Made by a program: the position numbers and the translations under genes. This document shows, piece after piece, positions 3 through 31,609 of a stretch of 64,000 nucleotides of DNA (position 1 is its first letter; every line of letters begins with the position of its first letter). Source of the DNA: Ostreococcus lucimarinus (Eukaryota); NCBI GenBank assembly GCA_000092065.1, contig CP000582.1; one strand, 5' to 3'. The notes beneath the pieces were generated by a model. That model ran no database searches and had not been told where the DNA came from. It was given only the letters and a program-made list of their open reading frames with translations.

Positions 3-3000
3 TGCAGATGTGAAAGCGTTACTACTTCGTCTAAGTCGTTCACAAAGCGTGCCAAGACGACAAAGATATCGCTCGCCAAGATCCATTCGCTCACAACGGA
101 GCGCCACGTCGAATACTTCGTGCACCCGACGTGCTTGGATAGTACGCTACAACTCGGTGCAGTGATGAACGCGGGGTCCTCCGAGACAAAAGTTCCCGTG
201 GGTGTGCACGCGTACGCTGCGCAGCAAATTTCTGTCAAACGGCGCAGTTTACACGCAAGCGCGAGCAATTCGAGTGGAAATTATGTACTCGAGCGCGCAA
301 ATGTCGTCGGACTCGAGCTCAAGCCCATGCGCCGTGGAAAAGCACTCGTGACAAAACAAACGCGCATGCTATACGCGCTTCGTTGGTTTGCTCTACAACC
401 GTGCGTTCCTGGTCAAAAGCGCACGGTGAGCGATTTAGAATCGTGTGCCACGTGTGGCGTCTTGACAGCCGCGTGCGCCGTCCAGTGTAATACGGCGACG
501 GGTATCGAAATTGAAACCATTCGCACAACAAGCAACGATGCCCTGCACGGCTTTGCTCGGACGGTTGGACAAGAAATAAAGCAGCTTCGTACGGAGAGTG
601 TTAGGTTCGACGGCGCGCGCACGCGGTACGTTGCGTCCGCAGATGCTTCGTTAAAGTTTGTCGGCGAATCGTATGATGTCCTCGTGCAGGCGAATATGAC
701 GTACGGCTCACGTGTACGCAAGGCGCAAAATGTGATCAAACCGCCTTCCCGAAAGTCTCTCACTCTCGAAGTGCGTATCCCCCGTCAAGCTCCAAAGACG
801 CTGCGCGTGATGATCACTGGTGGCTTGGGCGCCATCGGTGTCGAGTACGCGACACATGTGAACTCATCCACGATTGACGCTCGCGTGCGTCTTTTGGGTC
901 GTTCTGGGCGCGGAGCGGAATTCGATGGACGTACATTCTCTTCGGTGCACGCGTGCAAATGTGACGCGGGATTTAGCGAAGATGTCAAACCTGTGGTATA
1001 TCACCAATGCGATGAGATTCTTCACGCGGCGGGCGTGTTACGTGACGGGTTAATTCGTTTTCAAAGTGCACTGTCAGTAAGAGTTGTCATCGGTGCGAAA
1101 GTTAACTCTTGGCAAACACTCGAATCACATCTCGTGGGTGCGATGGTACGACGCATAGTGCACTGTTCTTCGATCGCAGCTCTCACAGGCTCGAGTGGGC
1201 AGTCGAACTATTCCGCCGCGAACGCGTGTTTGGATTCAATCGCCGACTTTGCGAGATTTCGAGGCGACTCTATCAGCTCAATGCAATTTGGAGCGTGGTC
1301 GAACGCCGGTATGGCAGAGGCGCGGGTTTTAGAAAAGGTTAACTCGATGGGTTTCGGTGTCGTCACCCCTGAACTTGGCATGCGCGCTCTGGAGAGAGTC
1401 ATGTCGAGACAAGGCATCGGTAACGTCATCGCGACACCGTACGATTTCAAAAAGTTTGCAGAAGCTTTACCTGTCATACCGAGGATGTATCGAGACGTCG
1501 CCGTGAAGCAAAAACAGAAAACATCGAAGAAACAGCGCAAACACGTGGGCGGAGGCGCTGCGCGCTTGAGCGTCGCCGTCGTTCGTAGAAAAATTCAGCA
1601 GATTGCGACGCAAGTCATCGGAAGAGAAATAGGCTTGGACGAACCTCTCATGGACGCTGGGCTGGATAGTCTCGGAGGGCAGGAAATGAAGGCGCAGATT
1701 GAAGATGAATTTGCCGTCGAACTTCCCGCGACGGCCGCGTTTGATTACCCCACGGTTTCAGTGTTGGGGGATTTCGTCGCAGGGGAACTGGGCGCCGGCG
1801 ATGTTGATGAAGATGAAGACACAGCGGAAGGCTCTGGAATCTCAATCGCAGACGTTCAATCGCGCGTACTACAAATTGCCTGTCAAGTGATCGGTCGAGA
1901 TGTTGACCCGAACGAGCCGTTGATGGATTCGGGACTCGACAGTCTCGGCGGTCAAGAGATGAAGCAACAAATCGAAGATGAATTTGACATCGAGCTCCCA
2001 CCCACCGTGGTATTCGATTACCCGACCATTAAAGACTTGGCGACGTTCGTCGCTGACGAAATTGGAGCCACGGCTGCGACAAAGAAGTCACCAACCATCG
2101 TCGTCGCGTCGTCGTTGAAACACGTTGCAGTGCGGAACTTTGATCTTACCGCGCCTCACCCTCCCGATGCCGACGCGATTCGTCGCGTTCCATACCACAG
2201 ATGGGATCACGACTTTTATCAAGAAGCCGTGCAAGAGTACCACTCCTCTCGCGTGAGCGGCTACAACTTGCACGTCGCTCCGTTTGGTGGATTCATGACC
2301 AATTATATCTCGTTCGACAACCGGGCATTTGCGATTTCGGCGTTAGAAGCGCTCTACATGGACGTTCAGCAAAGATCTCTTCTAGAAGGCACGTTCCAAG
2401 CGACGACTGCTGGAACTTTCGCCGTCACTAGCGAAGACACGCTCGAAGGCTCGCTATCGTCTGGCGTCTGGGTCGGGATCGCCGCGTGCGATTACGCAGA
2501 TGAGGTATTGCGAAGGTATGAACACGCGCTTCATCCGTATTTGGTGAGCGGTACTTCTCTCAACGTCGCCGCTGGACGCATTTCGTACGTGTTCAACTTT
2601 AAAGGGCCCTCTGTGAGCGTAGATACTGCGTGTAGCTCCTCCATTGTCACGACGCACTCGGCGTTTATCAGTATGAGATCTTCAGAAATCGGTCGAGCAG
2701 TGTCTTGCGGAGTGCAAGCGATTCTCAGTGAGCACATCACTGGTGTTTTCCACTCTTCAGGAATGCTCGCGCCTGATGGCAGATGTAAAACGCTTGATGC
2801 GAGTGCCGACGGTTACGTCAGAGGCGAGGCTCGAGGCGTGCTCGCCCTCGAAGCCGTTGACGCGAGTGAAGCGGTGAATGTCACGAATGTTTTACTAGCC
2901 GGAGCGGCAGTAAATCAAGACGGGCGGAGTTCTTCGTTGACTGCTCCAAATGGACCGACTCAGAAGACTGTCATTCGCGCCGCCATTAGTACAGCTTCCG

Positions 3001-4616
3001 CGATGACGCGAGACGTGGACGTTCTGCAACTACACGGAACTGGCACCGCGCTGGGCGATCCAATTGAGATTGGAGCAGCGCTGAGCGCTCTCGAAAGATT
3101 ACCTGCAGATCGCGCTTTTACGTTGGAAGCAGTAAAAACGCACGTCGGACACACTGAAACAGCGGCAGGGGCGGTATCGTTGGTGCAAGAGACGAAAAAG
3201 TTGGCCGGCTGTGCTACGTCGCTCGTCGCGCACTTGCGCTTGGTAAGCCCACATTTGCTGGGTTTGTTTGCCAGTGCCCAAACGAATGGCACACACATCG
3301 CCCGACAGTTTTCAGCTCGTTTGGCATCACTCGTTAGCGTTTCGGGCTTCGCCTTTCAAGGCACGAACGCAAACGCTGTCCTACGATTGAACTCTTCAAA
3401 ATTGCCCGCGCCGCGTCATTGTCCCAAAGCCATCTTTCATCGATCGCGCTTCTGGCCACTTCCAGAGCTCCACGTCCACTTGAAGACGTTTGATGGCAGC
3501 AACGATGCCGTTACTTTTCGGTTTACCGCGTGTGTTGACGCGAGATTACATTCGCATTTGCTCGGTTGCAAAACTTCCGCGCGAGAAGCCATCTTTCCGA
3601 GTGCCGGTTTCCTTGAACTCGCGTGCGCGGCTTCACGAATATTCGATCGCGAACCCATGGCGTGCGACGCGGCCGTCTTCGCACCTCTAGCCTTACGTAC
3701 GAATGGCGTGTACTTCTTCACAGTGGCCGTGAACGCGAAATCGGGGGAAGTCGAGGCGAAGGAGTCTTTGGACCAAGGCGAGGCGTGTATGCAATGCCGA
3801 GTTCGTCGCACAGATTTGGCGTCGAGGCGAACAGCCCCCGGTCCCGTTTCATCATTGCTCGTCGGGCGTTCGGATTCATCGAATAGAACTGTTCGAGCAC
3901 GCGTCAAGGCGAGGAGCGAGCAATCGCACTTCGAATATCGCATAGATCCTTGTGCGCTCGAGAGCTCGTTCGCCGCGAGATCGGCGATGCGCGATCCGGG
4001 CGTGCTCCGGGCGTGCGCTAGGCACTACACCACGCCTCGGACGGCAGCGATGTCTATGATCGCGACCATATGTGATCATGCACACACAATGAACGAAGTT
4101 TACACGATCGGTGTCGTATTCAAGAGGCCGTTTGATCGAGTTTACCGACTCATCAGACAAACGTTCGCGGCGACACCCGAAGCGACGACTTCACTTCGCC
4201 GTGAAGTTGTGGCGCCGTTACCGCCGCTCGAATCGCTCGAATCAATCCAGCGTAAAATCTATGCGCATTGTTCGCGAATTACAGGCGCCTCGTCGATCGC
4301 GGGCGGCGACGCGCTCGTCGATCTTGGCATGGATTCCTTGGCGGCGGCGGAGTTGCGTGCGGCAATTCAAAACGAGTTCGGAATGTTGCTCCCCATTCAC
4401 GCCGCGTTCGAGTGTCCCACCGCCGATGCACTCGCGAGTTACATCGTTCGCGAACATACAAAAAAGCGAAAAGCGGAGACCGCGGGCGCAACGCGACCGG
4501 CGTCGACTGTTGAAGGCGAGACGGTTCGTTGGCTTGTCGTTATCGCGGTTATCGTCGTCGTGATGGTTTTACACATCGTAAAGTTGACGAGAGCAGTCTC
4601 GCTCGAAGATGCTTGA
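3..4616 (+). CDS. Type I polyketide synthase, 5'-partial (the reading frame is open back to the window start). Domain order KR - ACP - ACP - KS - DH - ACP - C-terminal TM helix, with no AT domain.
   Basis: Two tandem ACP motifs GLDSLGGQEMK(A/Q)QIEDEF lie at about nt 1650-2000. The KS motifs DTACSSS, HGTGT and KTHVGHTETAAG are present. The DH motif is LHSHLLGCKTSAREAIFPSAGFLELA. A terminal ACP (LGMDSLAAAELR) is followed by the hydrophobic tail WLVVIAVIVVVMVLHIV. The ORF-track start at 120 is a GTG, and the frame is open upstream of it. Confidence 0.85.
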   Translation, partial: CRCESVTTSSKSFTKRAKTTKISLAKIHSLTTERHVEYFVHPTCLDSTLQLGAVMNAGSSETKVPVGVHAYAAQQISVKRRSLHASASNSSGNYVLERANVVGLELKPMRRGKALVTKQTRMLYALRWFALQPCVPGQKRTVSDLESCATCGVLTAACAVQCNTATGIEIETIRTTSNDALHGFARTVGQEIKQLRTESVRFDGARTRYVASADASLKFVGESYDVLVQANMTYGSRVRKAQNVIKPPSRKSLTLEVRIPRQAPKTLRVMITGGLGAIGVEYATHVNSSTIDARVRLLGRSGRGAEFDGRTFSSVHACKCDAGFSEDVKPVVYHQCDEILHAAGVLRDGLIRFQSALSVRVVIGAKVNSWQTLESHLVGAMVRRIVHCSSIAALTGSSGQSNYSAANACLDSIADFARFRGDSISSMQFGAWSNAGMAEARVLEKVNSMGFGVVTPELGMRALERVMSRQGIGNVIATPYDFKKFAEALPVIPRMYRDVAVKQKQKTSKKQRKHVGGGAARLSVAVVRRKIQQIATQVIGREIGLDEPLMDAGLDSLGGQEMKAQIEDEFAVELPATAAFDYPTVSVLGDFVAGELGAGDVDEDEDTAEGSGISIADVQSRVLQIACQVIGRDVDPNEPLMDSGLDSLGGQEMKQQIEDEFDIELPPTVVFDYPTIKDLATFVADEIGATAATKKSPTIVVASSLKHVAVRNFDLTAPHPPDADAIRRVPYHRWDHDFYQEAVQEYHSSRVSGYNLHVAPFGGFMTNYISFDNRAFAISALEALYMDVQQRSLLEGTFQATTAGTFAVTSEDTLEGSLSSGVWVGIAACDYADEVLRRYEHALHPYLVSGTSLNVAAGRISYVFNFKGPSVSVDTACSSSIVTTHSAFISMRSSEIGRAVSCGVQAILSEHITGVFHSSGMLAPDGRCKTLDASADGYVRGEARGVLALEAVDASEAVNVTNVLLAGAAVNQDGRSSSLTAPNGPTQKTVIRAAISTASAMTRDVDVLQLHGTGTALGDPIEIGAALSALERLPADRAFTLEAVKTHVGHTETAAGAVSLVQETKKLAGCATSLVAHLRLVSPHLLGLFASAQTNGTHIARQFSARLASLVSVSGFAFQGTNANAVLRLNSSKLPAPRHCPKAIFHRSRFWPLPELHVHLKTFDGSNDAVTFRFTACVDARLHSHLLGCKTSAREAIFPSAGFLELACAASRIFDREPMACDAAVFAPLALRTNGVYFFTVAVNAKSGEVEAKESLDQGEACMQCRVRRTDLASRRTAPGPVSSLLVGRSDSSNRTVRARVKARSEQSHFEYRIDPCALESSFAARSAMRDPGVLRACARHYTTPRTAAMSMIATICDHAHTMNEVYTIGVVFKRPFDRVYRLIRQTFAATPEATTSLRREVVAPLPPLESLESIQRKIYAHCSRITGASSIAGGDALVDLGMDSLAAAELRAAIQNEFGMLLPIHAAFECPTADALASYIVREHTKKRKAETAGATRPASTVEGETVRWLVVIAVIVVVMVLHIVKLTRAVSLEDA

Positions 4617-4637
4617 TCGAAATGTACGCGAAAATGC

Positions 4638-5456
4638 TCACAACTCCCATGATCCTCCTGCAAAACGCTGCTTCCGCGCGCGCTTTGAGATTCGAGGCGT
4701 CTGCGGGCTCTCAATTTCATCGCCAGAGGATTCGCGCGCCGTCTTCGTCATCGACGAACTCGTCGTCGTCGGTTTATATCTCTTCGTCGTGACGTTGATC
4801 TTTTCACGAACATCGCGAATGAACGATCTTCCAAACTTGAATTGCTTAGGCGGCTGCGCATGTGGAAACAAAGTTTCCCACTGCCGCTTACCGACCTCTC
4901 GTATCGTCTCATCGCCGACATCGGACGCGTCCACGGCCCGCACCGTCGCCGCGTCCAACTTCGCCCGCATCTCTTCCCACGTCATCTTGCGTTCGGGCTT
5001 TTTCGTTCGTCTCGCGCGCGGTCTCTCCGCGTCCGCATTCGGCGCAAATTCTCGCTTGACCACGAGTCCGAGTCCGAGTCCGCGTCGATCCGACGTCGTC
5101 TCGTCGTCCGACCACCCCGCGGCCAGCGCTTCGGCATCGCGCACCATTCGCTCCAACCGCTCCACCCGTCGTTTCGCGCGAGAGATTTGTTTCGAGAGCA
5201 GCTTCTCGCGCTCGACGAGCGATTCGCGTTCGCGTTCCAGCGAGTGTCTCGCCGTCGTCTGTTCTCGCAGCGCCGCGCGCGGCGCCCTCGCCGCGACCGC
5301 CGCGTTCTCGCCTCCACGCGCACCGCCCTCGTCCACGGGCACCACGAAAAGATCATTCGCGACGTCTTCCTCCGCGATCGCGGGCGCCGTCGCCTCCGCG
5401 TCCGCGCGCCACACGGCGTCCTCGAGCAGCACGGCCAACTCGGTCGCCGCCCCCAT
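4638..5456 (-). CDS. Hypothetical coiled-coil, lysine-rich protein. It is convergent with the PKS; the start codon is uncertain.
   Basis: Only the C-terminal approximately 270 aa of the minus-strand ORF 4638..6449 looks protein-like (heptad-like LERERESLVEREKLL, K/T-rich tail). Its upstream part is antisense to L9 and is rejected. No recognisable domain. Confidence 0.3.
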   Translation of the reverse strand: MGAATELAVLLEDAVWRADAEATAPAIAEEDVANDLFVVPVDEGGARGGENAAVAARAPRAALREQTTARHSLERERESLVEREKLLSKQISRAKRRVERLERMVRDAEALAAGWSDDETTSDRRGLGLGLVVKREFAPNADAERPRARRTKKPERKMTWEEMRAKLDAATVRAVDASDVGDETIREVGKRQWETLFPHAQPPKQFKFGRSFIRDVREKINVTTKRYKPTTTSSSMTKTARESSGDEIESPQTPRISKRARKQRFAGGSWEL

Positions 5457-5893
5457 GTCGGCGATCGGTCCGCGCGTCAGAGTGATTGACCTCGATCGAT
5501 CTTTCCCCGAGATCGATCGATCGACGGTGCGAGGTTCGTTGAATTTCGATGACCCAGGATTCGACCGACAGACCGAGCCCGCGCCTGCCGACGGCGACGT
5601 CCGCACACCCGCGCGACGATGTTCACCGTCTCCGCCCCCACGCACGCGAGCCTTCGGGCGTTCAAGCCGAACACGGTGCGTGCGAATGAATTCGTCGATC
5701 GCGCGCGCGCGATGGCGCGACGACGCGCGACGACGCGACGACGCGACGACGCGTCGCGATGCGTTATCGGGGCGCGACGCGCGGAGGGTTTCGGAAAGAA
5801 TTCGAACGCGACCGGACGCGCGAGACGCGGCGTGGACGTCGAGCGCGGGCGCGGGGACGCGCGTTAAAAAATCATGCGCGCGGTGCCGCCGTC

Positions 5894-6585
5894 GATGGCG
5901 TCGAGCGCAGAGCGCGCGCCGGAGGGGGGCGCGCGGGGCGATTCGAGGGTCTGGGGGTGTAGGGTTTTCGGGAAGCGCGCGTTTCCGCGCGCGTTTCCGC
6001 GCGCGTGCGTGCGATGACTGACGAGTGGTACGACGCGCGTTTTGCGATCGGTAGGTTTCGTCCAAGACCACGGCTGCGGTTCCGCGCTCGAGCGGCCGCG
6101 TCGGTCTCGTCGTCGAGGCGTACAAGAGAGCGGCGAAGAAGACGAAGGCGGTGCTCTTGAAGACGTCCGACGTCGGCCAAGAGGGCGACATGGTCGAGGT
6201 CTCTAACGGTTTCTTCCGCTCGTACCTCGAGCCGCAAGGTTTGGCGACCAAGGTGAGCCAAGAACTGATGGCTGAGTTCGAGGCGAAGGCTGCCGAGGCG
6301 GCGGCGGCCAAGGCGAAGGAAGTGCAAGACGCCAAGGCGCTCGCGACGGCGCTCACGACGATTGGCAAGTTTGTGGTGAAGAAGACTGTGGGTGAAGATG
6401 GCAAGATTTTCGGCTCCGTCTCGGCGGCTGATGTGGTCGAAGCGATCAAGGCTCAAACTGGCAAGGAGTTGGAAAAGAAGGCTTTTGACGTCCCCGACAT
6501 TTCCGCCGTCGGCGTCTACGAAATCAACGCCACGTTCCACAAGCAAGCGCAGTGCAAGTTCCAGCTCGAAGTTGCGAAGGATTAA
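5894..6585 (+). CDS. rpl9: Organellar 50S ribosomal protein L9 (bL9) with an N-terminal transit peptide. Two exons: 5894..6004 and 6055..6585.
   Basis: The mature region VLLKTSDVGQEGDMVEVSNGFFRSYLEPQGLA aligns with the bacterial L9 N-terminus. The frame upstream of 6151 is open but has no ATG back to a stop at 6052. Exon 1 (MRAVPPSMASSAERAPEGGARGDS...) ends in frame at a GTGCGT donor (6005). The branch site GACTGACGAG and a TAG acceptor at 6054 follow. Confidence 0.8.
6005..6054 (+). other. Intron (50 nt) in the L9 gene.
   Basis: Donor GTGCGT, branch ACTGACGA 33 nt upstream of the acceptor TAG. The splice restores a Met start and a transit peptide in frame. Confidence 0.75.
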
Positions 6586-15497: not shown

Positions 15498-16454
15498 TTA
15501 AAAAAATTCCTCCGTCCACGGCTGCATGGCGATGCGGTAGACGTCGACCTCGACGGGGCGACCGCGCGCCTTGACGAAGGTCTCGTCGGCGTCTTCGCCG
15601 CCGCCAACGGCGACCAAATATTCATACACGGTTTGCGAAGCGACGATTTGGGGACCTGATTTCGCTTCCTCGGGCGTGCGCCACTTGTACTTTGTGACGA
15701 TGCGCGTCGATTTCACGCGCGGTTCGGCGCCGACGCGACCACGGTCGACGACGATTTGCGCGAGCTCGGACGTCGTCATCGTTCTCGCGTCGTCGTCTCT
15801 GTCGCTCGACCGCGCAGTGACTTTATAAAACACGCTCGCACCGTCCCCGGTGACGAGTTTCAACACATTCGGGTCGTCGACGTTCCATTCGATCTCACCA
15901 TCGAGCGCGCGCTTCCCTCCGGATCCTCGAGACGCCTCCGCCAACGCTCTGACGTTGAACGCGCGATCGAACACCGTCTCCCCGCGTCCATTCTCCATGA
16001 ATCGCACCGGGTACACGAATGGTTCGCGCGCCGTGGCGTCCACTTCTCCTTTCAATCTTTCAAACGCGTCGACGTCGCGAATGAACTCCATGCCGAGCGG
16101 CGCGTCCACGCTCGCCGTGCGACTCGTCGTCAACCAGTTGCCCTCAAACGCGCGAGGGAAAACCAAATCGCTCGGTGCGCCCGTGATCGCGCCCCACGCG
16201 TCCGAAAGTCCACCGTTGGGCGCAGCGAACGACGACTGAGCGATGCACGCGCTCGATGCCGTCGACACCGCGCACGCGAGCGCGCTGCGGCGTCGTAAAA
16301 CGAATTCGTTCGCGTCATCGGTGTCGTCGACGTCGACGTCGCGCACGGCGTGCGGCGCGCGCGAGAGAGGTCGACGACGACGACGAGCGCGTCGTGCGTC
16401 GCGCTCGAGCCGGAAATCGAGCGCGCGCGGCGTCGGAGCAGATCTCGACGCCAT
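15498..16454 (-). CDS. Hypothetical protein with a Tat-type (twin-arginine) lumenal targeting signal. Function unknown.
   Basis: RRRSALACAVSTASSACIAQS (an RR motif, a hydrophobic core, then an AxA-like cleavage site) follows an S/T/R-rich presequence. The mature part is non-repetitive. The start may be the ATG at 16454 or an upstream alternative at 16514. Confidence 0.5.
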   Translation of the reverse strand: MASRSAPTPRALDFRLERDARRARRRRRPLSRAPHAVRDVDVDDTDDANEFVLRRRSALACAVSTASSACIAQSSFAAPNGGLSDAWGAITGAPSDLVFPRAFEGNWLTTSRTASVDAPLGMEFIRDVDAFERLKGEVDATAREPFVYPVRFMENGRGETVFDRAFNVRALAEASRGSGGKRALDGEIEWNVDDPNVLKLVTGDGASVFYKVTARSSDRDDDARTMTTSELAQIVVDRGRVGAEPRVKSTRIVTKYKWRTPEEAKSGPQIVASQTVYEYLVAVGGGEDADETFVKARGRPVEVDVYRIAMQPWTEEFF

Positions 16455-16510
16455 CGTCGCCCGTCGTCGCGCGAGCGCGGATGTGCGGCGAGTCGACACG
16501 CGCGTCGCGT

Positions 16511-18289
16511 TCATTTTACACGTTCTACTTCGCGAAGACTCGTGGGTAACGTCGTCTCGTCGAAAGTGGGTTTTCGTAAGAATCGCACGGATTCAGGGTC
16601 GCGAGTCCACGGGGCGACGAACCCGCTGGCGAGCAAGTCCTGCTCGTCCTTGCGTTCTTGCTCGGCGTTCTTGCGTTCTTGCTCGGCGTTCTTCTTCGCT
16701 TCGCGTCTCTCGCGCTTCGACTCAGAAGACGCGAAGAGTTTGCCGAATAAACCGCGACGTTTCGGAGGTTTCGATCGCTGCTTTTCGTCGTCTGCGGCGT
16801 TATCGCTACCGCTCGAGGAAGCGTCGAAATCGAGACGATCCGACGCGTGTTCATCGCCGACGCCCGCGGTGGCAACCTTCTTCGGCGCGTTCGCTATGGC
16901 AGTTGACGACGCTTCGCTCGCATTATCGCTTTCGATCGAACTTCCAGCGCCTCCAAAATGCGGCCGATCGCTACCCGTGTCGACGCGCTGGAGTATCGTT
17001 GCGGCTCTGAACATTCCGCCCATCGGCGCGGCGAGACGTCGGTAGAAAAGTGACTTGACGTTCTCCGGCGTGTCTGGGTCAAACTGTAATCGCTTGATGG
17101 AGAGTTTCGCGGACGCATTCGCGCGCGACTTCTCAAATTGGATCTCGTCAGCGATTTCAGGGGCTTTCTCAAGAGACAATCGTCGAACGCCGACGACTCG
17201 ATGCCCTTTGTGAGTAAACTTTTGCACCCCCCGTGTGTTTTCCGTCGCTCGCTTCTCGGCAAACGCAAAGTCCTGCTCCTCTTCCGTCATTTCGAACATG
17301 ATGAGGAGTAGATTGGTAAAATAATCTCTCGCCACGTTCATTGGACGCATGTCTTCCGGTGTCGCCAAATCTACCGCCGATGTGTAGCGCTCGAGCGCGT
17401 CCTCGGCCTCGTACGCCTCTTCGAAAATCTCCATACCGTGCTCTGATCCCTCGTTGTTATCCACCGAGTACGTATCCGCCTCTGGATCCCAAAACCGTTC
17501 GCGTTCGCTGTAGACGCCTTCAAAAACTTCCGGTCGCCCGGGCACGTTTTTAGACGCCGGCTGTTTCTCGAACCACTTCTCTTCTACGAGCAACATCTTG
17601 GCTAATTTCAACTCGACGTGTTCTTCGTGCGTAACGGTTCGTTCGGCGACCGCGTTGAAGGTCGGCGCGACGGCTTGGGCCGCGCTCGTGAACGCGGCTG
17701 GTACGAACCTTTGCATAAATTCCATCGCTTCGCCGTCCGGGTGATCCCACGTCGTTTCATTCGTCTCCTCGTCGACGTAATAATACTCTTCCCGCAGTTT
17801 GTCGTAATACTTCGAGTACCGACGCCCGTTCGTCGAGCTCACGAAAGATTCGCCCTCGTTCCGTCCGTCATCGATTCCCGATTCTGAGTCCGACGTCACG
17901 TCGTGTGCGTTCGGATCTTTGATCGTTTTCCACGACGGCCATTTTGAATCCTCGCGATCCTTCGTGACGGGATTATAGTAGTGCTTCCTCCTGAACTCTT
18001 TATCGACGCGCGCGTACCAAACGTCCCCAGTCGTTTTACAACGAAGCGCGGCGACGACTTCGTACCCATCCATGTCTGTCCCGATCGCGTCCATCGGCGA
18101 AGATGCCTTCGACGGGCTCGATTTACTATCCCCAGCCTCGCCCGCGTCTCGCTCGCCGCTCGGCGACGACGGCGTCGGCGTCGTCTCGGCGCGCTCGGGC
18201 GTCGACCCCGACTCGGCCTCTCTTCGCGCGAGCGTTCGCGACGAGAACGCCACCGCCGGTGCGTCCGTGATCACCGGCGATTCGGGCAT
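16511..18289 (-). CDS. WW-domain-containing protein.
   Basis: Two WW-like modules are present (WYARVDKEFRRKHYYNPVTKDREDSKWP and YYYVDEETNETTWDHP). A C-terminal K/E-rich region is ERKNAEQERKNAEQ. ATG at 18289. Confidence 0.6.
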   Translation of the reverse strand: MPESPVITDAPAVAFSSRTLARREAESGSTPERAETTPTPSSPSGERDAGEAGDSKSSPSKASSPMDAIGTDMDGYEVVAALRCKTTGDVWYARVDKEFRRKHYYNPVTKDREDSKWPSWKTIKDPNAHDVTSDSESGIDDGRNEGESFVSSTNGRRYSKYYDKLREEYYYVDEETNETTWDHPDGEAMEFMQRFVPAAFTSAAQAVAPTFNAVAERTVTHEEHVELKLAKMLLVEEKWFEKQPASKNVPGRPEVFEGVYSERERFWDPEADTYSVDNNEGSEHGMEIFEEAYEAEDALERYTSAVDLATPEDMRPMNVARDYFTNLLLIMFEMTEEEQDFAFAEKRATENTRGVQKFTHKGHRVVGVRRLSLEKAPEIADEIQFEKSRANASAKLSIKRLQFDPDTPENVKSLFYRRLAAPMGGMFRAATILQRVDTGSDRPHFGGAGSSIESDNASEASSTAIANAPKKVATAGVGDEHASDRLDFDASSSGSDNAADDEKQRSKPPKRRGLFGKLFASSESKRERREAKKNAEQERKNAEQERKDEQDLLASGFVAPWTRDPESVRFLRKPTFDETTLPTSLREVERVK

Positions 18290-18536
18290 CGCGAGCGCGT
18301 CGTTCGCGCGCGTGTACGCGTCGCGCGTCGGCGTAACACCACTAGAATCAATTCAGAATTCCAACTCACAACGCCGAGGCTTCGCGACGCGCGCCGTGGA
18401 CGCGTCGCGCGGCGGACGGGGTCGCGCGCGCGCGAACGCCGCGATGCGTGCCGCGCGGTGCGCGCGAGATCGACGCTCGGTGCGTCGAGGCGTGCGGTCA
18501 ATCGGTGTTCTCGTTCGCGAGGCTACAACTTCTACG

Positions 18537-19892
18537 CTAGTCGCTAAAACCGTACTTTTCGAGCGTTTGCCCGAGCGGGGCGATGAGAATTTGCTTTTTG
18601 CGGAGACGGAATTCTACGGCGAGGGCGGTTTCGGGGGACACGTTCGGGTCGGCGAGCGCGGCGACGTCGTCTTTGATTTTGGTGCGAAAGCGGCCGCCGA
18701 CGAGCAACGCGCGGCATCGAGAGGCGACGACGTCTAACCACGGAATACCGAGAACATCATCGCACGCCTCGATCAATTTTTCGTCGACTGAGTCCACCTT
18801 GATCTTCACGCGCGCGTCGTCGCCGAAGACGTCGCGTAGGCGCGCCCGCGTGGTCGCGTCGAGGTCCCGCCTGAACTCGTCGGCGACGTGCGCGACCAAT
18901 TCGTCGACGTTTTCGAAAATAACGAACGTGTCGTTGACGTTGGTACCCCTCGGGATGAAACCGAAATACATCAACCACACGTCGTTAGGGAACGAGCCGT
19001 AGGAAATTAAAATTTCCTCGCCCGCTTCCACGGTTTCGCCATCCGGGTCGACGACGAGCTCGAAAAACTTGTCCATCGTCGACGACGGCGCTATCTCTGC
19101 TATTTCTTCCGTCGCAGCCGCTCCCTGACACGTCTCCGGCGACGTCACCACGCGCACGATGGCGTTAAAGCGCGCGGCGTCGTGATTACACATGTCCACG
19201 CCCGGCACCAACAGTCGCGTCGCTCGCTCCGCCGCGCCGTCTCGCCGCGTGAACACTCTCGAGTGCACCACCGCGGTGGCCCACTTCAAATCCTCGACCG
19301 TCGCCCCGATCGCGGCCAATCGCTCGCCGTACGCCTCGCGCGCGCGCTCGTGCGCTCGCCGCACGGCCAACGCCTCGTCGACGACGCTTTCGTCTTCGAT
19401 TTCCCGCAGCGCTTCGTCGTCGAAATCCAACGCCGGCGTCTTCGGCGCCGGTCTCGGCAATCGCGTCAACCACGCCGCGCGTTCGTTCGACTCTCCCTCG
19501 CTCAGTTCTTCCAAGAGCGTCATCGCCATCGCGGACGACCACCGCGCGTCGTCGTCGCCGTCGTCGTCGCCGCTCGCGCTCGCGCTCTCCACCACCAACC
19601 CCCAGGGCACGCGCAGCAGCGTCTCTCCCGGCGCCAGATCCCGCACCGCCTCGACGCCGCGCGTCCCGAACGCGCGTCCGCGCTCGGTCAGCGCGATGCG
19701 CGTCGCCACGCCGTCGTCTTTCGTCGCGCGCGCCAACCACCGCGCGAAGTCTTCGTCTTCGTCTTCGTCTTCGTTCGCGCTCGCGCGCGCCCTCGCCCGC
19801 GCGCCGCGCGTCGCCGTCGCGCGTCGTCGTCGCGCCGTCGCGCGCGCCGCGCCGGCCGCGCCCTCGGCCGCGCGCGGCGCCGCGCGCGCCAT
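18537..19892 (-). CDS. SET-domain protein lysine methyltransferase, Rubisco-LSMT-like.
   Basis: The SET motifs are GETLLRVPWGLVV, VDMCNHD and GEEILISYGSFPNDVWLMYFGFIP. The real start is probably the internal ATG (MARAAPRAAEG...). The ORF-track start at 20333 is a GTG inside the neighbouring gene. Confidence 0.75.
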   Translation of the reverse strand: MARAAPRAAEGAAGAARATARRRRATATRGARARARASANEDEDEDEDFARWLARATKDDGVATRIALTERGRAFGTRGVEAVRDLAPGETLLRVPWGLVVESASASGDDDGDDDARWSSAMAMTLLEELSEGESNERAAWLTRLPRPAPKTPALDFDDEALREIEDESVVDEALAVRRAHERAREAYGERLAAIGATVEDLKWATAVVHSRVFTRRDGAAERATRLLVPGVDMCNHDAARFNAIVRVVTSPETCQGAAATEEIAEIAPSSTMDKFFELVVDPDGETVEAGEEILISYGSFPNDVWLMYFGFIPRGTNVNDTFVIFENVDELVAHVADEFRRDLDATTRARLRDVFGDDARVKIKVDSVDEKLIEACDDVLGIPWLDVVASRCRALLVGGRFRTKIKDDVAALADPNVSPETALAVEFRLRKKQILIAPLGQTLEKYGFSD

Positions 19893-24596: not shown

Positions 24597-26381
24597 ATGG
24601 AGGGCATCGCGCGCCGATCGAGCGCGCCGCGACCGCGCTCGATCGCGACCGCGCCGACGCGTCGCGCGACGACGACGACGCGCGGCGCGCCGAACGACGA
24701 CGCGGGCGACGCGCGGTACGCGATCGCGCGATCGGTGGTGCTGAACGCGCGATCGCTGACGGAAACGAAGGCGACGACGAGCGAGCCGAGGACGAGGCCG
24801 AGGACGAGCGGGACGAGCGGGCGCGGAGACGCGAGCGGGCGCGAGAGAGGGCGAGGGTTGGCGTGCGATCGAAGCGTGGGCGATCGCGTGCGAGCGAACG
24901 GAGGGGCGAATGTGAAGCACGTGCATCCGCTGCCGCTGTCGGTGACGCACGACGATGCGTTCGCGGAGAGGTTGGGGAAGTTGAGAGCGCGCGCGAGCGA
25001 CGCGGAGGACGTGTACGACGCGCTGCGGAGACGGAAAGAGGAAGGATCGCGACCGGGGGCGAGGACGGATGAGTTGAAGATTGGACTCGTGGTCGAGGGG
25101 GGGGGGATGCGAGGGGTGATCAGCGCCGGCGCGGCCGGGGCGTTGTTAGAGGCGGGGTATTACGACTGCTTCGACGCCGCGTACGGGTCGAGCGCGGGGG
25201 CGATGAATTTGACGTATTACCTCTCAAAGCAGCCGGAAGGGATTTTTGCGTACGAGGAAGATTTATGCGACGGTTCGTTCTTAGATTTAAAGCGCCACGT
25301 CTCGAGGCGGATGACGGTGATTAAGGAGGCGCACATCGATTTGGTGCGCCCCTTCGTGCGCTTTGGGCGTCGCTCTCGAAACGCCCTCGCGGCGAGAAAT
25401 GGCGCGAGCACAATCGAGACGGCGACCATGGCGGACGTCGGCACTTTAGCAGAAACGCTGAGCGACGACGATGGGGATTCAAAGTTTGCCGTGGATCCGG
25501 CGATGAATGTGAATTACTTGCTCGAAACCGTCATGGGCGGCGAAACCGGACGTCCGTTGCGATGGAAGGACGTCATCACCTCCTCCGTACCGCTCAAAGT
25601 CGTCGCCACGTCGCTCGACACACTGACAACCGTTATTTTGGATGACTTCAAGGATGAAGCCGATCTAAAAAAGTCGTTGCTCGCGAGCGCGCGCGTGCCG
25701 GCCCTCGCGGGTAGCTCCCCGGTGACTCACAGAGGTCATCGACTGGTAGACGCCGCCGTGCTCGAGCCCGTGCCCGTGCACGCGGCGGCGCACGACGGAT
25801 GCACGCACATCCTGGTTTTACTCACCGCCCCGCACAAAGTGGACACCGAAGCGGACGTGACGAACACGGAGAAGCGCGAGAACAGACGATTTCTCGGGCA
25901 GATTCGCGAACGCCTGTCTCGCGTGCGGCAATCCAAGGCGCGAGACGTCGTCGCGGCGGCGGCGAGCGACACCAACGACAGCGATCTGAACAAATCCATC
26001 GACGACCTCGAGGCGAAACCAAAACCGGCGCAATCGGCGCTGTATCGGGCCATACGCAACTTGCTCTTTGCGCCGTCGTACATGGGCGCGGTGTGGGACC
26101 TCCACGATTCCTACGCCGCCACCCTCGACGCCCGCCACGGCTGGCGCGCGCGCGACGTCTTCATCCCCTCCACAGCTCCGAGCGCATTTCATCCCATCAA
26201 GATCGCCACCATCGCTCCATCCGGTCCGGCATCCAAAGCCATGTCCAGTCTGTGCGTCGACGCCGACCTCATCGCCGCCGCGCGTCGCGAGGGCGCCGCC
26301 GCGTGTTTCCGCGCCCTCGGCGTCGCCTTCGACGACACCGCTTCGCAGCCCAACGTCCCGAGCGCCGAGCGTTCGCGTTAA
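24597..26381 (+). CDS. Patatin-like phospholipase.
   Basis: Oxyanion and nucleophile motifs GLVVEGGGMRGVISAGAAGALLEAG ... GSSAGAMNL are present. ATG at 24597 (MEGIARR...). The ORF-track region upstream of it is R-rich junk. Confidence 0.8.
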   Translation: MEGIARRSSAPRPRSIATAPTRRATTTTRGAPNDDAGDARYAIARSVVLNARSLTETKATTSEPRTRPRTSGTSGRGDASGRERGRGLACDRSVGDRVRANGGANVKHVHPLPLSVTHDDAFAERLGKLRARASDAEDVYDALRRRKEEGSRPGARTDELKIGLVVEGGGMRGVISAGAAGALLEAGYYDCFDAAYGSSAGAMNLTYYLSKQPEGIFAYEEDLCDGSFLDLKRHVSRRMTVIKEAHIDLVRPFVRFGRRSRNALAARNGASTIETATMADVGTLAETLSDDDGDSKFAVDPAMNVNYLLETVMGGETGRPLRWKDVITSSVPLKVVATSLDTLTTVILDDFKDEADLKKSLLASARVPALAGSSPVTHRGHRLVDAAVLEPVPVHAAAHDGCTHILVLLTAPHKVDTEADVTNTEKRENRRFLGQIRERLSRVRQSKARDVVAAAASDTNDSDLNKSIDDLEAKPKPAQSALYRAIRNLLFAPSYMGAVWDLHDSYAATLDARHGWRARDVFIPSTAPSAFHPIKIATIAPSGPASKAMSSLCVDADLIAAARREGAAACFRALGVAFDDTASQPNVPSAERSR

Positions 26382-28871: not shown

Positions 28872-30155
28872 ATGCTCGACGACGGCGACGTCGATGCGCA
28901 GCGCGCGTCCGCGCGCGAAGCCGCGCCTTTATTGCGGACGGATGAAGACGCAACCAGGGTGTTGGCGCATCCCGCGACGCGTTCGTCGCGCGCGGTGACG
29001 CTCTGGACGCTCGCGAGCGCGCTCGTCGGCGCTGGACTCTTCGCGTGCGTCGACGGGACGCGCCGCGAGGTGAAACACCGCGCCGCGCTGGGTGAAGCGT
29101 GGGAAACAGAGTGGGGCGCGCTGGACTTGGGCGAACGCGCGACGCGCGCGACGGCGGCGTTGCAAGGGAAAACCGAAGGGCACGGGCTGCCGGTGTTCTT
29201 GCACATCCCGAAGGCCGGTGGAACGACGATCGAAACCGCGCTGGGGGTGTTGGGAATCGATGTCGGGTATTGTCACCTCCCCGAAGCGCGCGGCACGCCG
29301 ACGCCGTACGAGACGAGTCCGACGTTTGAGAACGAGGCGTGGCACAGGCCGCCGGCGGCGTTCGTTCCGGATTCGTGGGCGATCGTGCGGAATCCGTACA
29401 GACGGTTCGCGAGCGATTTCTTGTGGGCGAAATATTTAGGGTCGGAGCCCGGGCAGTTTTGGGGGTTGAACCCAGGGTATAGCGAGCGGAACTGCGAGGC
29501 GTTTCAGAGCTACGTGAAGGATATGATCTCACCCGCCGCGTCGCCGGATGGATGGATGGATGATAAGTTCAAATGCTACAACGACGCCAAGTTCACCCTA
29601 CAGGGCATTGCTGACTGCGAGACGAAGTATCCGGGCTTTAAGATTCACCTCGGCTCGCACGTGCTACCGCAACGCATCACGACGGCGTACGCCGAACGCG
29701 TCTTCAAATTCGAGGAATGCTTCGACTCCGCGCCGGGGAAGTGCAAGGACCCGAGAAACATGATCGAGCAAGACAACATCATCGCTTTCATGCGTAATCG
29801 CTACACTCCAGCGGTGACGATCGAAGAGAAAATTAACGAATGGAACGCCGCCGTGGAGAAGCCCGATGTCATGTCGTGTTGGGCTGAATTCGACCCGGCG
29901 ATTTTACGCGTCTACGACGCCGTCTACACGCACGACTTTGCGGGATTCGGATACAACAAGATATCTCCCAAGGGCACCACCGACGGCACGTCCGTGTTCG
30001 ATAACTCGGCACACACCAATCACCACGCCGACGGCAAAACGCTCGAACAGCTCAGGTCAGAGCTTCCCGAAAACACACCCATCATGGACGTCCAGGGACC
30101 GAAGTGCGACGCGGGGGCGCCGGCCCTCGGCCGCTCGAACGATCGCGCGCGTTGA
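28872..30155 (+). CDS. Golgi-type (type II membrane) sulfotransferase-like protein, copy 1 of a tandem pair.
   Basis: An N-terminal signal-anchor AVTLWTLASALVGAGLFACV is present. The PAPS 5'-PSB-like motif is GLPVFLHIPKAGGTTIETALGVLGIDVGYCH. A second conserved block is PDSWAIVRNPYRRFASDFLW. Confidence 0.7.
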   Translation: MLDDGDVDAQRASAREAAPLLRTDEDATRVLAHPATRSSRAVTLWTLASALVGAGLFACVDGTRREVKHRAALGEAWETEWGALDLGERATRATAALQGKTEGHGLPVFLHIPKAGGTTIETALGVLGIDVGYCHLPEARGTPTPYETSPTFENEAWHRPPAAFVPDSWAIVRNPYRRFASDFLWAKYLGSEPGQFWGLNPGYSERNCEAFQSYVKDMISPAASPDGWMDDKFKCYNDAKFTLQGIADCETKYPGFKIHLGSHVLPQRITTAYAERVFKFEECFDSAPGKCKDPRNMIEQDNIIAFMRNRYTPAVTIEEKINEWNAAVEKPDVMSCWAEFDPAILRVYDAVYTHDFAGFGYNKISPKGTTDGTSVFDNSAHTNHHADGKTLEQLRSELPENTPIMDVQGPKCDAGAPALGRSNDRAR

Positions 30156-30295: not shown

Positions 30296-31609
30296 ATGCG
30301 CGTCGGCCAAGATGAGCGCGTGAGTCTCATCCCCGAGCGCACCGCGGGCGACGACGGCGCCCCCGACGCGTCGTTCTCGTCGTCGACGCGCGCGCGCGCG
30401 TGCCTCAACACCCATCGCAGCAAGTTGACGTGGGCGTGCGTCGCCGTCGTTGTCGCGCTCGGCGCGGTGTGCGGCGTCGAGTTTAAGCTAGAGCGCGATC
30501 GCGAAATCGCGTGTCACACGCGCACGGATCGGGGGATGGGCGGACCGGGCGTGGTGCGACTGGGAGAGGGGCTGACGCCGCGCCGAGTCGGCGACTTTGG
30601 GGACGCGGCGGCGGCGGCGAAGGCGTTCCCCCTCCGTGCCGGTCACGATGATTATTCAAAGTACGACAGCGTCGCGCTGAAAGAATTAGTGATGGAACAC
30701 TTGCGCGGAAAGTGCGAAGGGAGCGGGTTACCGGTGTTCTTGCACATTCCGAAGACGGGCGGGACGACGATCGAGACGGTGCTGGGGACGTTGGGAATCG
30801 ACGTCGGGTATTGTCACAAGCGACCGTTTGAGTTCCGGAAGAAGTACATCGGGTACGAGCAGTGGCACACGCCGCCGGCGGCGGAGGTGCCGGATTCGTT
30901 CGCCATCGTGAGAAATCCTTACTCGCGAGCGCAGAGCGAATTTTTGTGGCGCATGAATTGGTTGGACAAGGCGCTCTTCCACAGCTTGAGGCCTGGATAC
31001 GACCCCGAGAATTGCAAGAAGTTTGAGAATCACATCAAGCAGCAGGTTCACGACGCCCACAAGTCCGAGTTGTCGCAGTGCTACCAAGAGGTCGAGTACA
31101 CCATCCAAGGCATGAACGAGTGCGACGGAAAGATTGCGGCGAGGTTGAACGTCGAATCGCACTGGCTCCCGCAATCCGTCACGGCGGCCAGCGCCTCGCG
31201 CTTGTTCCGCTTCGAAGAGTGCATGGGTCCAGAGGAAGGCACGTGCCCTCGTGTAAGAGGCGAAGGCGAGCAGCCCAACGTCGTGTCCTTTTTACGTTCC
31301 CGATTTCACCCCGCGGTGTCCATGGCTTCGCACGAAAACGATTGGAACGCCGCCGTGGTAAAACCCAACCTTCACGCGTGCTGGGAAAACATGAACCCCA
31401 GCGTGTTGAACGCATTCAACGCCTTCTTCAAGCACGACGTTTCAGCCTTCGGATACGAGATGGTGACCCCAGCCCACGCCCTGGACGCCCCCGACGGCGG
31501 ATTCCACTACGCTCCGGCGCTCGCGCTCGCGCCGAAAACTTTGGGCGAGATCCAAGCCGAGCTCCCGAGCGGTGACGTCGTCCAGGCCAACGTCGGTCCG
31601 CAGTGTTAA
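30296..31609 (+). CDS. Golgi-type sulfotransferase-like protein, copy 2 (a paralogue of 28872..30155).
   Basis: Signal-anchor KLTWACVAVVVALGAVCGV. GLPVFLHIPKTGGTTIETVLGTLGIDVGYCH and PDSFAIVRNPYSRAQSEFLW are near-identical to the blocks in copy 1. The gene begins about 140 bp after copy 1 ends. Confidence 0.7.
   Translation: MRVGQDERVSLIPERTAGDDGAPDASFSSSTRARACLNTHRSKLTWACVAVVVALGAVCGVEFKLERDREIACHTRTDRGMGGPGVVRLGEGLTPRRVGDFGDAAAAAKAFPLRAGHDDYSKYDSVALKELVMEHLRGKCEGSGLPVFLHIPKTGGTTIETVLGTLGIDVGYCHKRPFEFRKKYIGYEQWHTPPAAEVPDSFAIVRNPYSRAQSEFLWRMNWLDKALFHSLRPGYDPENCKKFENHIKQQVHDAHKSELSQCYQEVEYTIQGMNECDGKIAARLNVESHWLPQSVTAASASRLFRFEECMGPEEGTCPRVRGEGEQPNVVSFLRSRFHPAVSMASHENDWNAAVVKPNLHACWENMNPSVLNAFNAFFKHDVSAFGYEMVTPAHALDAPDGGFHYAPALALAPKTLGEIQAELPSGDVVQANVGPQC

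Follow-up and report, generated by a model that had tools for sequence, protein, structure and literature searches.

The stretch of Ostreococcus lucimarinus DNA analysed here (64,000 nucleotides, in the following called the window) begins inside a very large gene for polyketide biosynthesis. A single open frame occupies positions 3..4616 of the plus strand (frame +3 from base 3; 1,537 codons), and its best NCBIfam matches are models of type I polyketide synthases (PKSs). The frame closes with a TGA stop codon (4614..4616, +), which marks the true end of the PKS: the orthologues terminate at the corresponding point, and the conserved gene that comes next encodes ribosomal protein L9. We conclude, with a probability of about 0.8, that this frame represents the 3' ~30% of the nuclear OluPKS2 gene of O. 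lucimarinus, or of a near-identical allele. This gene would encode an acyltransferase (AT)-less, multimodular type I PKS of ~4,700-5,000 amino acids (aa) with four ketosynthase (KS) domains, which combines a pseudo-dehydratase in its last module with the signature of a tail anchor at its C-terminus.

Along the frame, the domains follow in the order dehydratase (DH, C-terminal half), ketoreductase (KR), acyl carrier protein (ACP), ACP, KS, DH-like domain, ACP and hydrophobic helix, which corresponds to the end of module 3 (DH-KR-ACP-ACP) and a complete module 4 (KS, pseudo-DH, ACP). The original prediction for this DNA, which had been made from the letters alone, listed KR, ACP, ACP, KS, DH, ACP and a helix. 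The KR, the three ACPs and the KS (E 1e-24 to 1e-46) as well as the helix were found as listed, but the supposed terminal DH remains below the Pfam thresholds and lacks the catalytic His. The partial DH at the start of the frame (~first 112 aa) had not been mentioned. It is truncated at the window edge (3..338, +), is recognized as Pfam PS-DH over aa 27-74 (E=1.3e-4), aligns with the internal DHs of the orthologues and includes HPTCLDSTLQ (aa 41-50), which is the canonical HPxxLDxxLQ motif.

The catalytic subdomain of the KR (807..1301, +; Pfam PF08659, aa 269-433, E=1.4e-23) contains the NADPH motif ITGGLGAIG (aa 271-279), HAAGVLRDG (aa 341-349) and YSAANA (aa 403-408), and its LxD motif (LRD) is what we take to be B-type by the Caffrey rule. 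Both members of the ACP doublet, ACP1 (1560..1808, +) and ACP2 (1833..2081, +), match Pfam PP-binding and carry their serine in GLDSL (aa 553-557 and 644-648, respectively). The KS of the last module (2172..3386, +; PF00109, E=9e-46; PF02801, E=1.5e-24; aa 724-1062) has a complete Cys-His-His condensing triad in DTACSSS (aa 874-880), HGTGT (aa 1011-1015) and VGHTE (aa 1048-1052), and the terminal ACP (ACP3; 4236..4478, +) matches PP-binding and ACP_SdgA_C (aa 1430-1492), with its serine in GMDSL (aa 1442-1446). The KS triad, the KR motifs (GGxGxxG, YxxxN) and all three ACP serines (G(L/M)DSL) are intact in the window, and the visible KS, KR and ACPs are predicted from these motifs to be catalytically competent. 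Beyond the KS triad, the protein qualifies as a type I modular PKS because its ACPs are integrated and carry the DSL serine, and because reductive domains follow in modular order on one polypeptide.

Three type I PKSs of O. lucimarinus were catalogued by Shelest, Heimerl, Fichtner & Sasso (2015, BMC Genomics 16:1015; PMC4661987). One of them, OluPKS2 (JGI Ost9901_3 protein 29828), was described as Lig-ACP-KS-KR-ACP-KS-KR-ACP-KS-KR-ACP2-KS-ACP and predicted to be of the trans-AT type (PMC4661987, Table S2). Organism, architecture and orthologue length are the basis on which we identify the window frame with this gene. As to the organism, three ORFs of the window have exact copies in public sequence collections, and the 90% clusters to which these belong include O. 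lucimarinus proteins. The stretches that match XP_001416296.1 of O. lucimarinus CCE9901 are 97.4-100% identical to it, and the glycyl-tRNA synthetase (GlyRS) of the window is 99.8% identical to a GlyRS labelled Ostreococcus 'lucimarinus'. The DNA belongs to O. lucimarinus or to a very close strain. The same study reported that integrated ATs are absent from almost all multimodular algal PKSs, and discussed domain duplications including those of ACPs. The original reading of the gene as a type I multimodular PKS that lacks an AT ("trans-AT-like") and carries a tandem ACP is therefore supported and correct, but was already published in 2015 (PMC4661987). Apparently unreported are the C-terminal membrane-anchor helix and the catalytically dead DH-like domain. 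The words "transmembrane" and "membrane" occur zero times in the main text of PMC4661987, and the literature searched held no relevant account of tail-anchored or C-terminally membrane-anchored PKSs.

Full-length relatives define the part of the gene that precedes the window. A homologue search with the full query, which listed proteins of up to ~2,700 aa, gave P0001 as the best full-query match (57% identity, 96% coverage), encoded on an 849-kb metagenomic contig. At its locus, L001, a 3,241-aa open reading frame (ORF) adjoins P0001, and the two are separated by a one-base frame change within a KS; joined, they read AMP-ligase, ACP, KS, KR, ACP, KS, DH, KR, ACP, KS, DH, KR, ACP, ACP, KS, DH-like, ACP. 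The frame change is located inside KS3 at ~9990-10010 of L001 (...DGYVRGEARGVF* / VHRMDDSS...). In the other orthologues the PKS is one uninterrupted ORF; the split in L001 comes from faulty assembly or polishing, or else from a very short intron.

A profile of the terminal DH-like domain, searched against 1.84 billion representative proteins, retrieved 11 matches in all. Four of these are complete (4,701, 4,793, 5,228 and 5,465 aa), each with the DH-like domain near its C-terminus, and the full-length orthologues are colinear with the window over ~1,500 aa at 46-54% identity. In the orthologue P0169, Pfam recognizes AMP-binding, four KS, six ACP, KR and DH domains. The window and L001 also share their gene order, which is PKS, L9, RelA/SpoT, GlyRS and DUF6816. 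That the gene continues upstream of the window and is very large, as had been proposed, is borne out by the orthologue lengths of 4,701-5,465 aa.

The tandem ACP had been attributed to a recent internal duplication, with 70-80% identity between the copies at the nucleotide level. We measured 68% over 198 nucleotides and 64% over 77 aa, and a repeat search of the window did not report the doublet as a repeat. Every orthologue (P0001, P0168-P0171) has the doublet. ACP2 of the window is 70% identical to ACP2 of P0001, and ACP1 to its counterpart 62%; the copies inside one protein share 62% (window) or 58% (P0001), and cross-pairs 53-58%. Because orthologous ACP2 copies are more alike than the copies within one protein, the duplication is, judging from these comparisons, an old one that predates the split of lineages which are 46-57% identical overall, and the claim of a recent event does not hold.

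The terminal DH-like domain (3435..4190, +; aa 1145-1396) was characterized by profile-profile comparison, an AlphaFold2 (AF2) model, a fold search and residue columns. Pfam, applied to this region alone, gave only PKS_DH_N at E=0.039 (14 bits against a cut-off of 27), and a sequence search of the PDB returned no match at E<=10. By hhalign, the terminal domain family matches a canonical PKS DH profile in the region of the N-terminal hot-dog helix (90% probability, E=1.6e-6). The terminal domains are, moreover, colinear over their full length, at 21-27% identity, with the eight internal DHs that occur in these proteins. A first AF2 run that comprised the DH-like domain, ACP and tail (13-row alignment) had a mean pLDDT of 55, with the second hot-dog half below 50, and was excluded from the fold search. 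The model of the DH-like domain used for this search (pLDDT 74.8, pTM 0.74) displays the beta-alpha-beta hot-dog pattern twice. Its best 50 PDB matches by Foldseek are all DH domains of PKSs or fatty acid synthases (FASs), except for AviM PT (7vwk), a product-template (PT) domain of DH fold; they include GphF, CurF/J/K, the ambruticin DH-cyclase (AmbDH3, 5o15), human FAS and PksJ DH1 (E=3e-10 to 2e-7, TMq 0.52-0.69). The terminal domain is predicted by this model to have a double hot-dog DH fold.

The catalytic residues of this fold appear to be gone. All eight internal DHs show the motifs ...RLH.HLLDH.V....YPG.GF.EL... and ...[HN]P..LD..LQ..., and at the position of the catalytic His (HxxxGxxxxP) they have a His in 8/8 cases. 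The terminal domains have one in 0/7, with C (Cys1189 of the window), Y, V, C, gap, gap and M in this column. The RLHSHLL context is retained, and other residues take the place of the "LLDH" His. The Asp of DxxxQ/H is replaced by Glu in 8/8 terminal domains (Glu1320 of the window), while the internal DHs keep D...Q/H; the Gln position is occupied by A, S, S, S, M, T, S and S. A functional terminal DH, as originally proposed, is contradicted by these columns, since the fold is present but the His is replaced in seven of seven domains and the Asp in eight of eight. A dehydratase would also have no substrate in the last module, because module 4 has no KR. The simplest reading of these residue patterns is that the terminal DH would be a retained, inactive scaffold.

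Two candidate substitutes for the lost residues were considered and rejected. The H-x-H of RLHSHLL could have been a displaced catalytic His, but the internal DHs share RLHSHLL in addition to their true "LLDH" His, and the second His is R or C in two orthologues. The cysteine of an invariant M-x-C, considered as a new nucleophile, is common to the active internal DHs as well. With respect to these internal DHs (P0168-P0171, P0001), we observed that they are compact and diverged, lack the long insert near the YGP motif of canonical DHs, and are detected only weakly by Pfam, which probably explains why the published OluPKS2 architecture includes no DH.

Rather than being an inert scaffold, the terminal domain could have been repurposed as a PT-like cyclase, a lactonising release domain or an isomerase, which would act on the 3-oxoacyl-ACP through the invariant Glu and another base and would supply the off-loading device that a PKS without a thioesterase (TE) domain is missing. 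Such a function would fit a domain that is full length in all eight orthologues, that keeps several invariant residues besides the Glu at the Asp position, and that occupies the position between KS and ACP where fungal non-reducing PKSs have their PT domain; its fold matches also include a PT domain (AviM, 7vwk) and a DH-cyclase (ambruticin, 5o15). FabZ-type hot-dog dehydratases use a His/Glu pair. However, the column of the His holds no conserved residue and no other base is conserved. The His residues of RLHSHLL and the invariant M-x-C, as described above, are not specific to the terminal domain. Inactive domains of PKSs and FASs are, furthermore, commonly kept as structural scaffold. We therefore regard a repurposed domain as unlikely, though it fares best among the alternatives considered here, and favour the pseudo-DH.

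Downstream of ACP3, the protein ends in a strongly hydrophobic segment. The predicted transmembrane tail anchor WLVVIAVIVVVMVLHIV (4530..4580, +; aa 1510-1526) was located by hydropathy; the 11 residues KLTRAVSLEDA separate it from the stop codon. Its peak, at aa 1511-1529 and eight residues from the end, has a Kyte-Doolittle (KD) mean of 2.86, and the next best segment of the window protein reaches 1.34. Together with the lack of any TE or hydrolase domain in Pfam searches of the window ORF and of P0169, this substantiates the hydrophobic C-terminal helix without TE that had been noticed originally. In each of the eight orthologues that include a C-terminus, a run of 15-19 hydrophobic residues is found 2-10 residues before the end of the protein, and in seven of them no other 19-mer anywhere in the protein is as hydrophobic as this tail (KD 1.96-3.38). 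The tail is modelled by AF2 as a helix (pLDDT 82-94), and the flank behind it is mostly net positive in the orthologues. The helix sequences are unrelated among orthologues; hydrophobicity alone is conserved.

No comparable tail was found in the 119 other PKS homologues from the full-query search, whose C-terminal 19-mers stay at or below KD 1.58 and whose 19-mers at any position stay below 2.6. A hydropathy scan (no signal-peptide predictor) of the four full-length orthologues showed no hydrophobic core in the first 80 aa (best 12-mer KD 0.8-1.4) and no other 19-mer above ~2.2. As far as hydropathy can predict it, the proteins thus have a single transmembrane domain (TMD) within ~30 residues of the C-terminus, and the conserved tail helix looks like the signature of a tail-anchored protein. 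An ORF that overlaps the stop codon (4609-6021) was also considered as a frameshift extension of the PKS, and was rejected, as it has no Pfam match and a low-complexity translation, and as the PKS orthologues end where the window protein does.

The tail helix might alternatively serve as a docking or oligomerisation element that passes the chain to a second PKS subunit, for example OluPKS1, instead of anchoring the protein in a membrane, which would equally explain why there is no TE. Multi-subunit PKSs usually have C-terminal docking helices after their terminal ACPs. The protein indeed terminates as ACP-linker-helix without a TE, and OluPKS1, with the architecture KS-KR-ACP-KS-KR-ACP-KS2-ACP, has no loading module of its own (PMC4661987, Table S2). 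Docking helices are amphipathic, however, whereas here 17-19 residues in a row (KD 2.7-3.4) consist of V, I, L, A or F with few exceptions and surpass in hydrophobicity every other stretch of proteins that are up to 5,228 aa long. A conserved hydrophobicity on a sequence that is not conserved fits a lipid-facing helix and not a specific protein interface, and such a tail occurs in none of the 119 other PKSs, many of which are multi-subunit enzymes. A membrane anchor would be compatible with hand-over to another PKS. Because the segment is uniformly apolar, we favour a tail anchor and rate a pure docking function as somewhat less likely even than a repurposed terminal DH.

An AT is missing from the window frame, as had been noted for the region between KS and DH. 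Pfam found neither an AT (PF00698) nor a KS-AT linker domain in the ORF at 3..4616, in which the KS and ACP motifs are present. We additionally built a profile from 65 PKS AT domains and ran it with all HMMER heuristic filters off; a cis-AT positive control scored 472 bits. This profile found nothing in the six frames of the whole 64-kb window (best score <0), and had no match in the six frames of L001 (25.5 kb), in P0001 or in P0168-P0171. Pfam likewise detected no AT in P0169 or in the complete orthologous locus L001. As the full-length orthologues and L001 contain no AT, an AT is therefore not hidden in the upstream part of the gene, where it had been suspected. Nor did the search for a discrete AT gene succeed: no AT, TE or phosphopantetheinyl transferase is encoded among the neighbour genes of the window, and L001 provides no discrete AT either.

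The junction behind the KS may preserve a trace of how the AT was lost. The motif FHRSRFWPLP (3435..3464, +), which begins ~20 aa past the KS end (FAFQGTNAN), is kept in all orthologues and resembles the post-AT linker YPFQRxRYW of cis-AT PKSs; the cis-AT comparators P0054 and P0120 carry "...LPTYPFQRERFW / YPWQRSRYW" after their ATs. KAsynt_C_assoc has no match after the window KS, and its matches in orthologues are partial and sub-threshold (profile positions 2-52 of 111). Such a motif right after the KS suggests, from the alignment, a clean excision of the KS-AT linker together with the AT. Most of the closest bacterial relatives from the full-query search carry cis-AT domains, which fits the independent AT loss proposed in PMC4661987.

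A cis-AT that lies upstream or is too diverged to be detected, or a bacterial trans-AT PKS introduced by contamination or recent transfer, might be thought of because the window covers the last 1,537 aa only, the PKS is lower in GC than its neighbours and its best non-algal matches are bacterial PKSs, but this is highly improbable, given that four complete orthologues and a full orthologous locus have no AT by Pfam or by the AT profile with filters off, that ~20 residues between the KS end and the RFWPLP motif leave no room for one, that two lineages share the linkage of the PKS with nuclear genes (L9, RelA/SpoT, fused GlyRS, DUF6816), that the orthologue shares the low GC, and that the bacterial matches cover 24-56% of the query at 27-42% identity. 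In figures, the PKS gene has a GC content of 54.8% (57% at third codon positions, GC3), its neighbours have a GC3 of 71-76% and the rest of the window (4617-64000) has 63.7% GC; the same contrast is seen at the orthologous locus (L001 276-15529), with 51.6-53.2% as compared to 60.5% in the flanks. Possible causes are that the gene lies in the low-GC part of Ostreococcus chromosome 2, is weakly expressed or is of foreign origin.

From the assembled domains, a possible course of synthesis can be sketched. The N-terminal AMP-dependent ligase and ACP, a loading didomain known from the orthologues only, would adenylate and load a carboxylic, probably fatty, acid, which would then undergo four extensions with malonyl units from an AT encoded elsewhere. 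Modules 1-3 would reduce the chain, modules 2 and 3 would also dehydrate it, and module 4, with no KR and with a His-less DH fold, would leave a beta-keto (3-oxo) thioester on ACP3. The chain may be released by a hydrolase or acyltransferase acting in trans, be handed over to another PKS subunit or leave by spontaneous lactonisation. If the anchor is inserted post-translationally, the megasynthase would sit on the cytosolic face of an endomembrane, that is, the endoplasmic reticulum (ER) or an organelle outer envelope, and a lipid-like product would be made there. The most far-reaching form of this idea, in which a ~0.5-MDa assembly-line PKS without AT and TE, conserved across the picoalgae of the Mamiellales, is truly anchored in a membrane by its tail, builds a 3-oxo lipid at an organelle or ER surface and uses a non-canonical off-loading step (through the His-less DH fold, which would release or cyclise the chain, or through direct transfer of the chain to the membrane or a partner bound to it), is speculative, and we consider it improbable as a whole.

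Several points weigh against our interpretation. The match to OluPKS2 (JGI protein 29828) is an indirect one, drawn from organism, architecture and orthologue length. Membrane insertion, topology and target membrane of the tail are hydropathy predictions, and in P0171 the tail helix is shorter and weaker, being the second best 19-mer of this protein (KD 1.88). The AF2 alignment for the pseudo-DH included the internal DHs of the family, which possibly biased the model towards a DH fold. Finally, the modules are AT-less as expected for a trans-AT system, but no trans-acting AT was found near the PKS in the 64-kb window and the 25.5 kb of L001, so that the designation "trans-AT" is inferred from absence.

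Downstream of the PKS, the window contains housekeeping genes of the kind expected in the nucleus of a green alga, namely genes for a plastid-type L9, RelA/SpoT, a fused alpha/beta GlyRS, DUF6816, a Rubisco-LSMT-like protein, beta-amylase, L3 and a patatin, and furthermore for two sulfotransferases, a mitochondrial carrier, a methyltransferase, PPDK, an SDR and an RWP-RK protein. The gene for L9 is located at 6190-6582, and the spacer between it and the PKS (4617-6189) measures 1.57 kb in the window and 0.64 kb in L001. Two overlapping ORFs in this region, 4609-6021 (+) and 4638-6449 (-), have low-complexity, Arg/Ser/Ala-rich translations and no Pfam match; they are probably spurious and driven by GC, or may represent a lineage-specific gene. 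The patatin-like phospholipase and two tandem Sulfotransfer_2 ORFs (24597-26378, 28872-30152 and 30296-31606, +) lie 20-27 kb downstream of the PKS and are lipid- or tailoring-type enzymes for which we saw no link to it.

On the minus strand, XP_001416296.1 (1,280 aa) spans three stretches of 15501-19892, namely an LSMT-like part, an ORF with a WW domain (16514-18289) and the DUF6816 ORF (15501-16514). Public metagenome gene calls and the stop codons of the window show these stretches as separate ORFs, and the CCE9901 model may have fused two or three genes, unless its joins represent introns. Within the SET/LSMT-like coding region (XP_001416296.1 matches 18510-19892), ARAGORN called a 66-nucleotide tRNA-Gly with anticodon ACC (19651-19716, -). 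A scan of the window with Rfam returned nothing, including no tRNA, and the call was probably made in error.

To a catalogued gene of known kind, the conserved tail-anchor signature and the pseudo-DH add modest detail at the level of annotation. The published architecture of OluPKS2 includes none of its DH-like domains, the last of which is conserved as a pseudo-DH. A real anchor would place an orphan pathway at a membrane surface in one of the most abundant marine picoeukaryotes, and would offer a handle for the localisation of the enzyme, its product, the missing AT and the release factor.

Compared with the catalogued OluPKS2, the window protein comes from the same organism and has the same tail (...KS-KR-ACP2-KS-ACP) with no AT and no TE, and the N-terminal AMP-ligase and ACP as well as the four KS domains of its orthologues fit the published string. 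The difference lies in the DHs: the published annotation has none, whereas we find diverged but motif-complete DHs in modules 2 and 3 and a pseudo-DH in the last module. Chlorophyte megasynthases such as PKS1 of Chlamydomonas reinhardtii (11 modules; PMC7073580), which have been designated trans-AT (PMC7073580), are likewise nuclear, multimodular and AT-less, with loading by an adenylating domain. Enzymes of this type also have one or more last modules without reducing domains, and their product was proposed to be structural (PMC7073580). CrePKS1 is, however, much larger, is drawn with a TE (Fig. 2 of PMC7073580) and has no reported tail anchor.

Bacterial trans-AT PKSs, such as those for bacillaene (PksJ/L) and macrolactin (MlnB), share the AT-less modules and often have tandem ACPs as well as DH-like domains that are inactive or non-canonical; the DH structures 8qk4 and 5hst from this group are among the fold matches of the terminal domain. 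Unlike the locus described here, which shows none in the 64-kb window or the 25.5 kb of L001, they have a dedicated AT gene in their cluster, and their KSs are followed by a ~100-aa flanking subdomain, whereas the window KS runs almost straight into RFWPLP. Eukaryotic tail-anchored proteins (GET/TRC40 clients and tail-anchored proteins of organelle outer membranes) are typically small, and a ~0.5-MDa enzyme would be an unusual cargo. The PKS nonetheless resembles them in having a single C-terminal TMD of ~17-19 residues that is followed by 2-11 residues, a short and mostly net positive flank, and no N-terminal signal predicted by hydropathy in the full-length orthologues.

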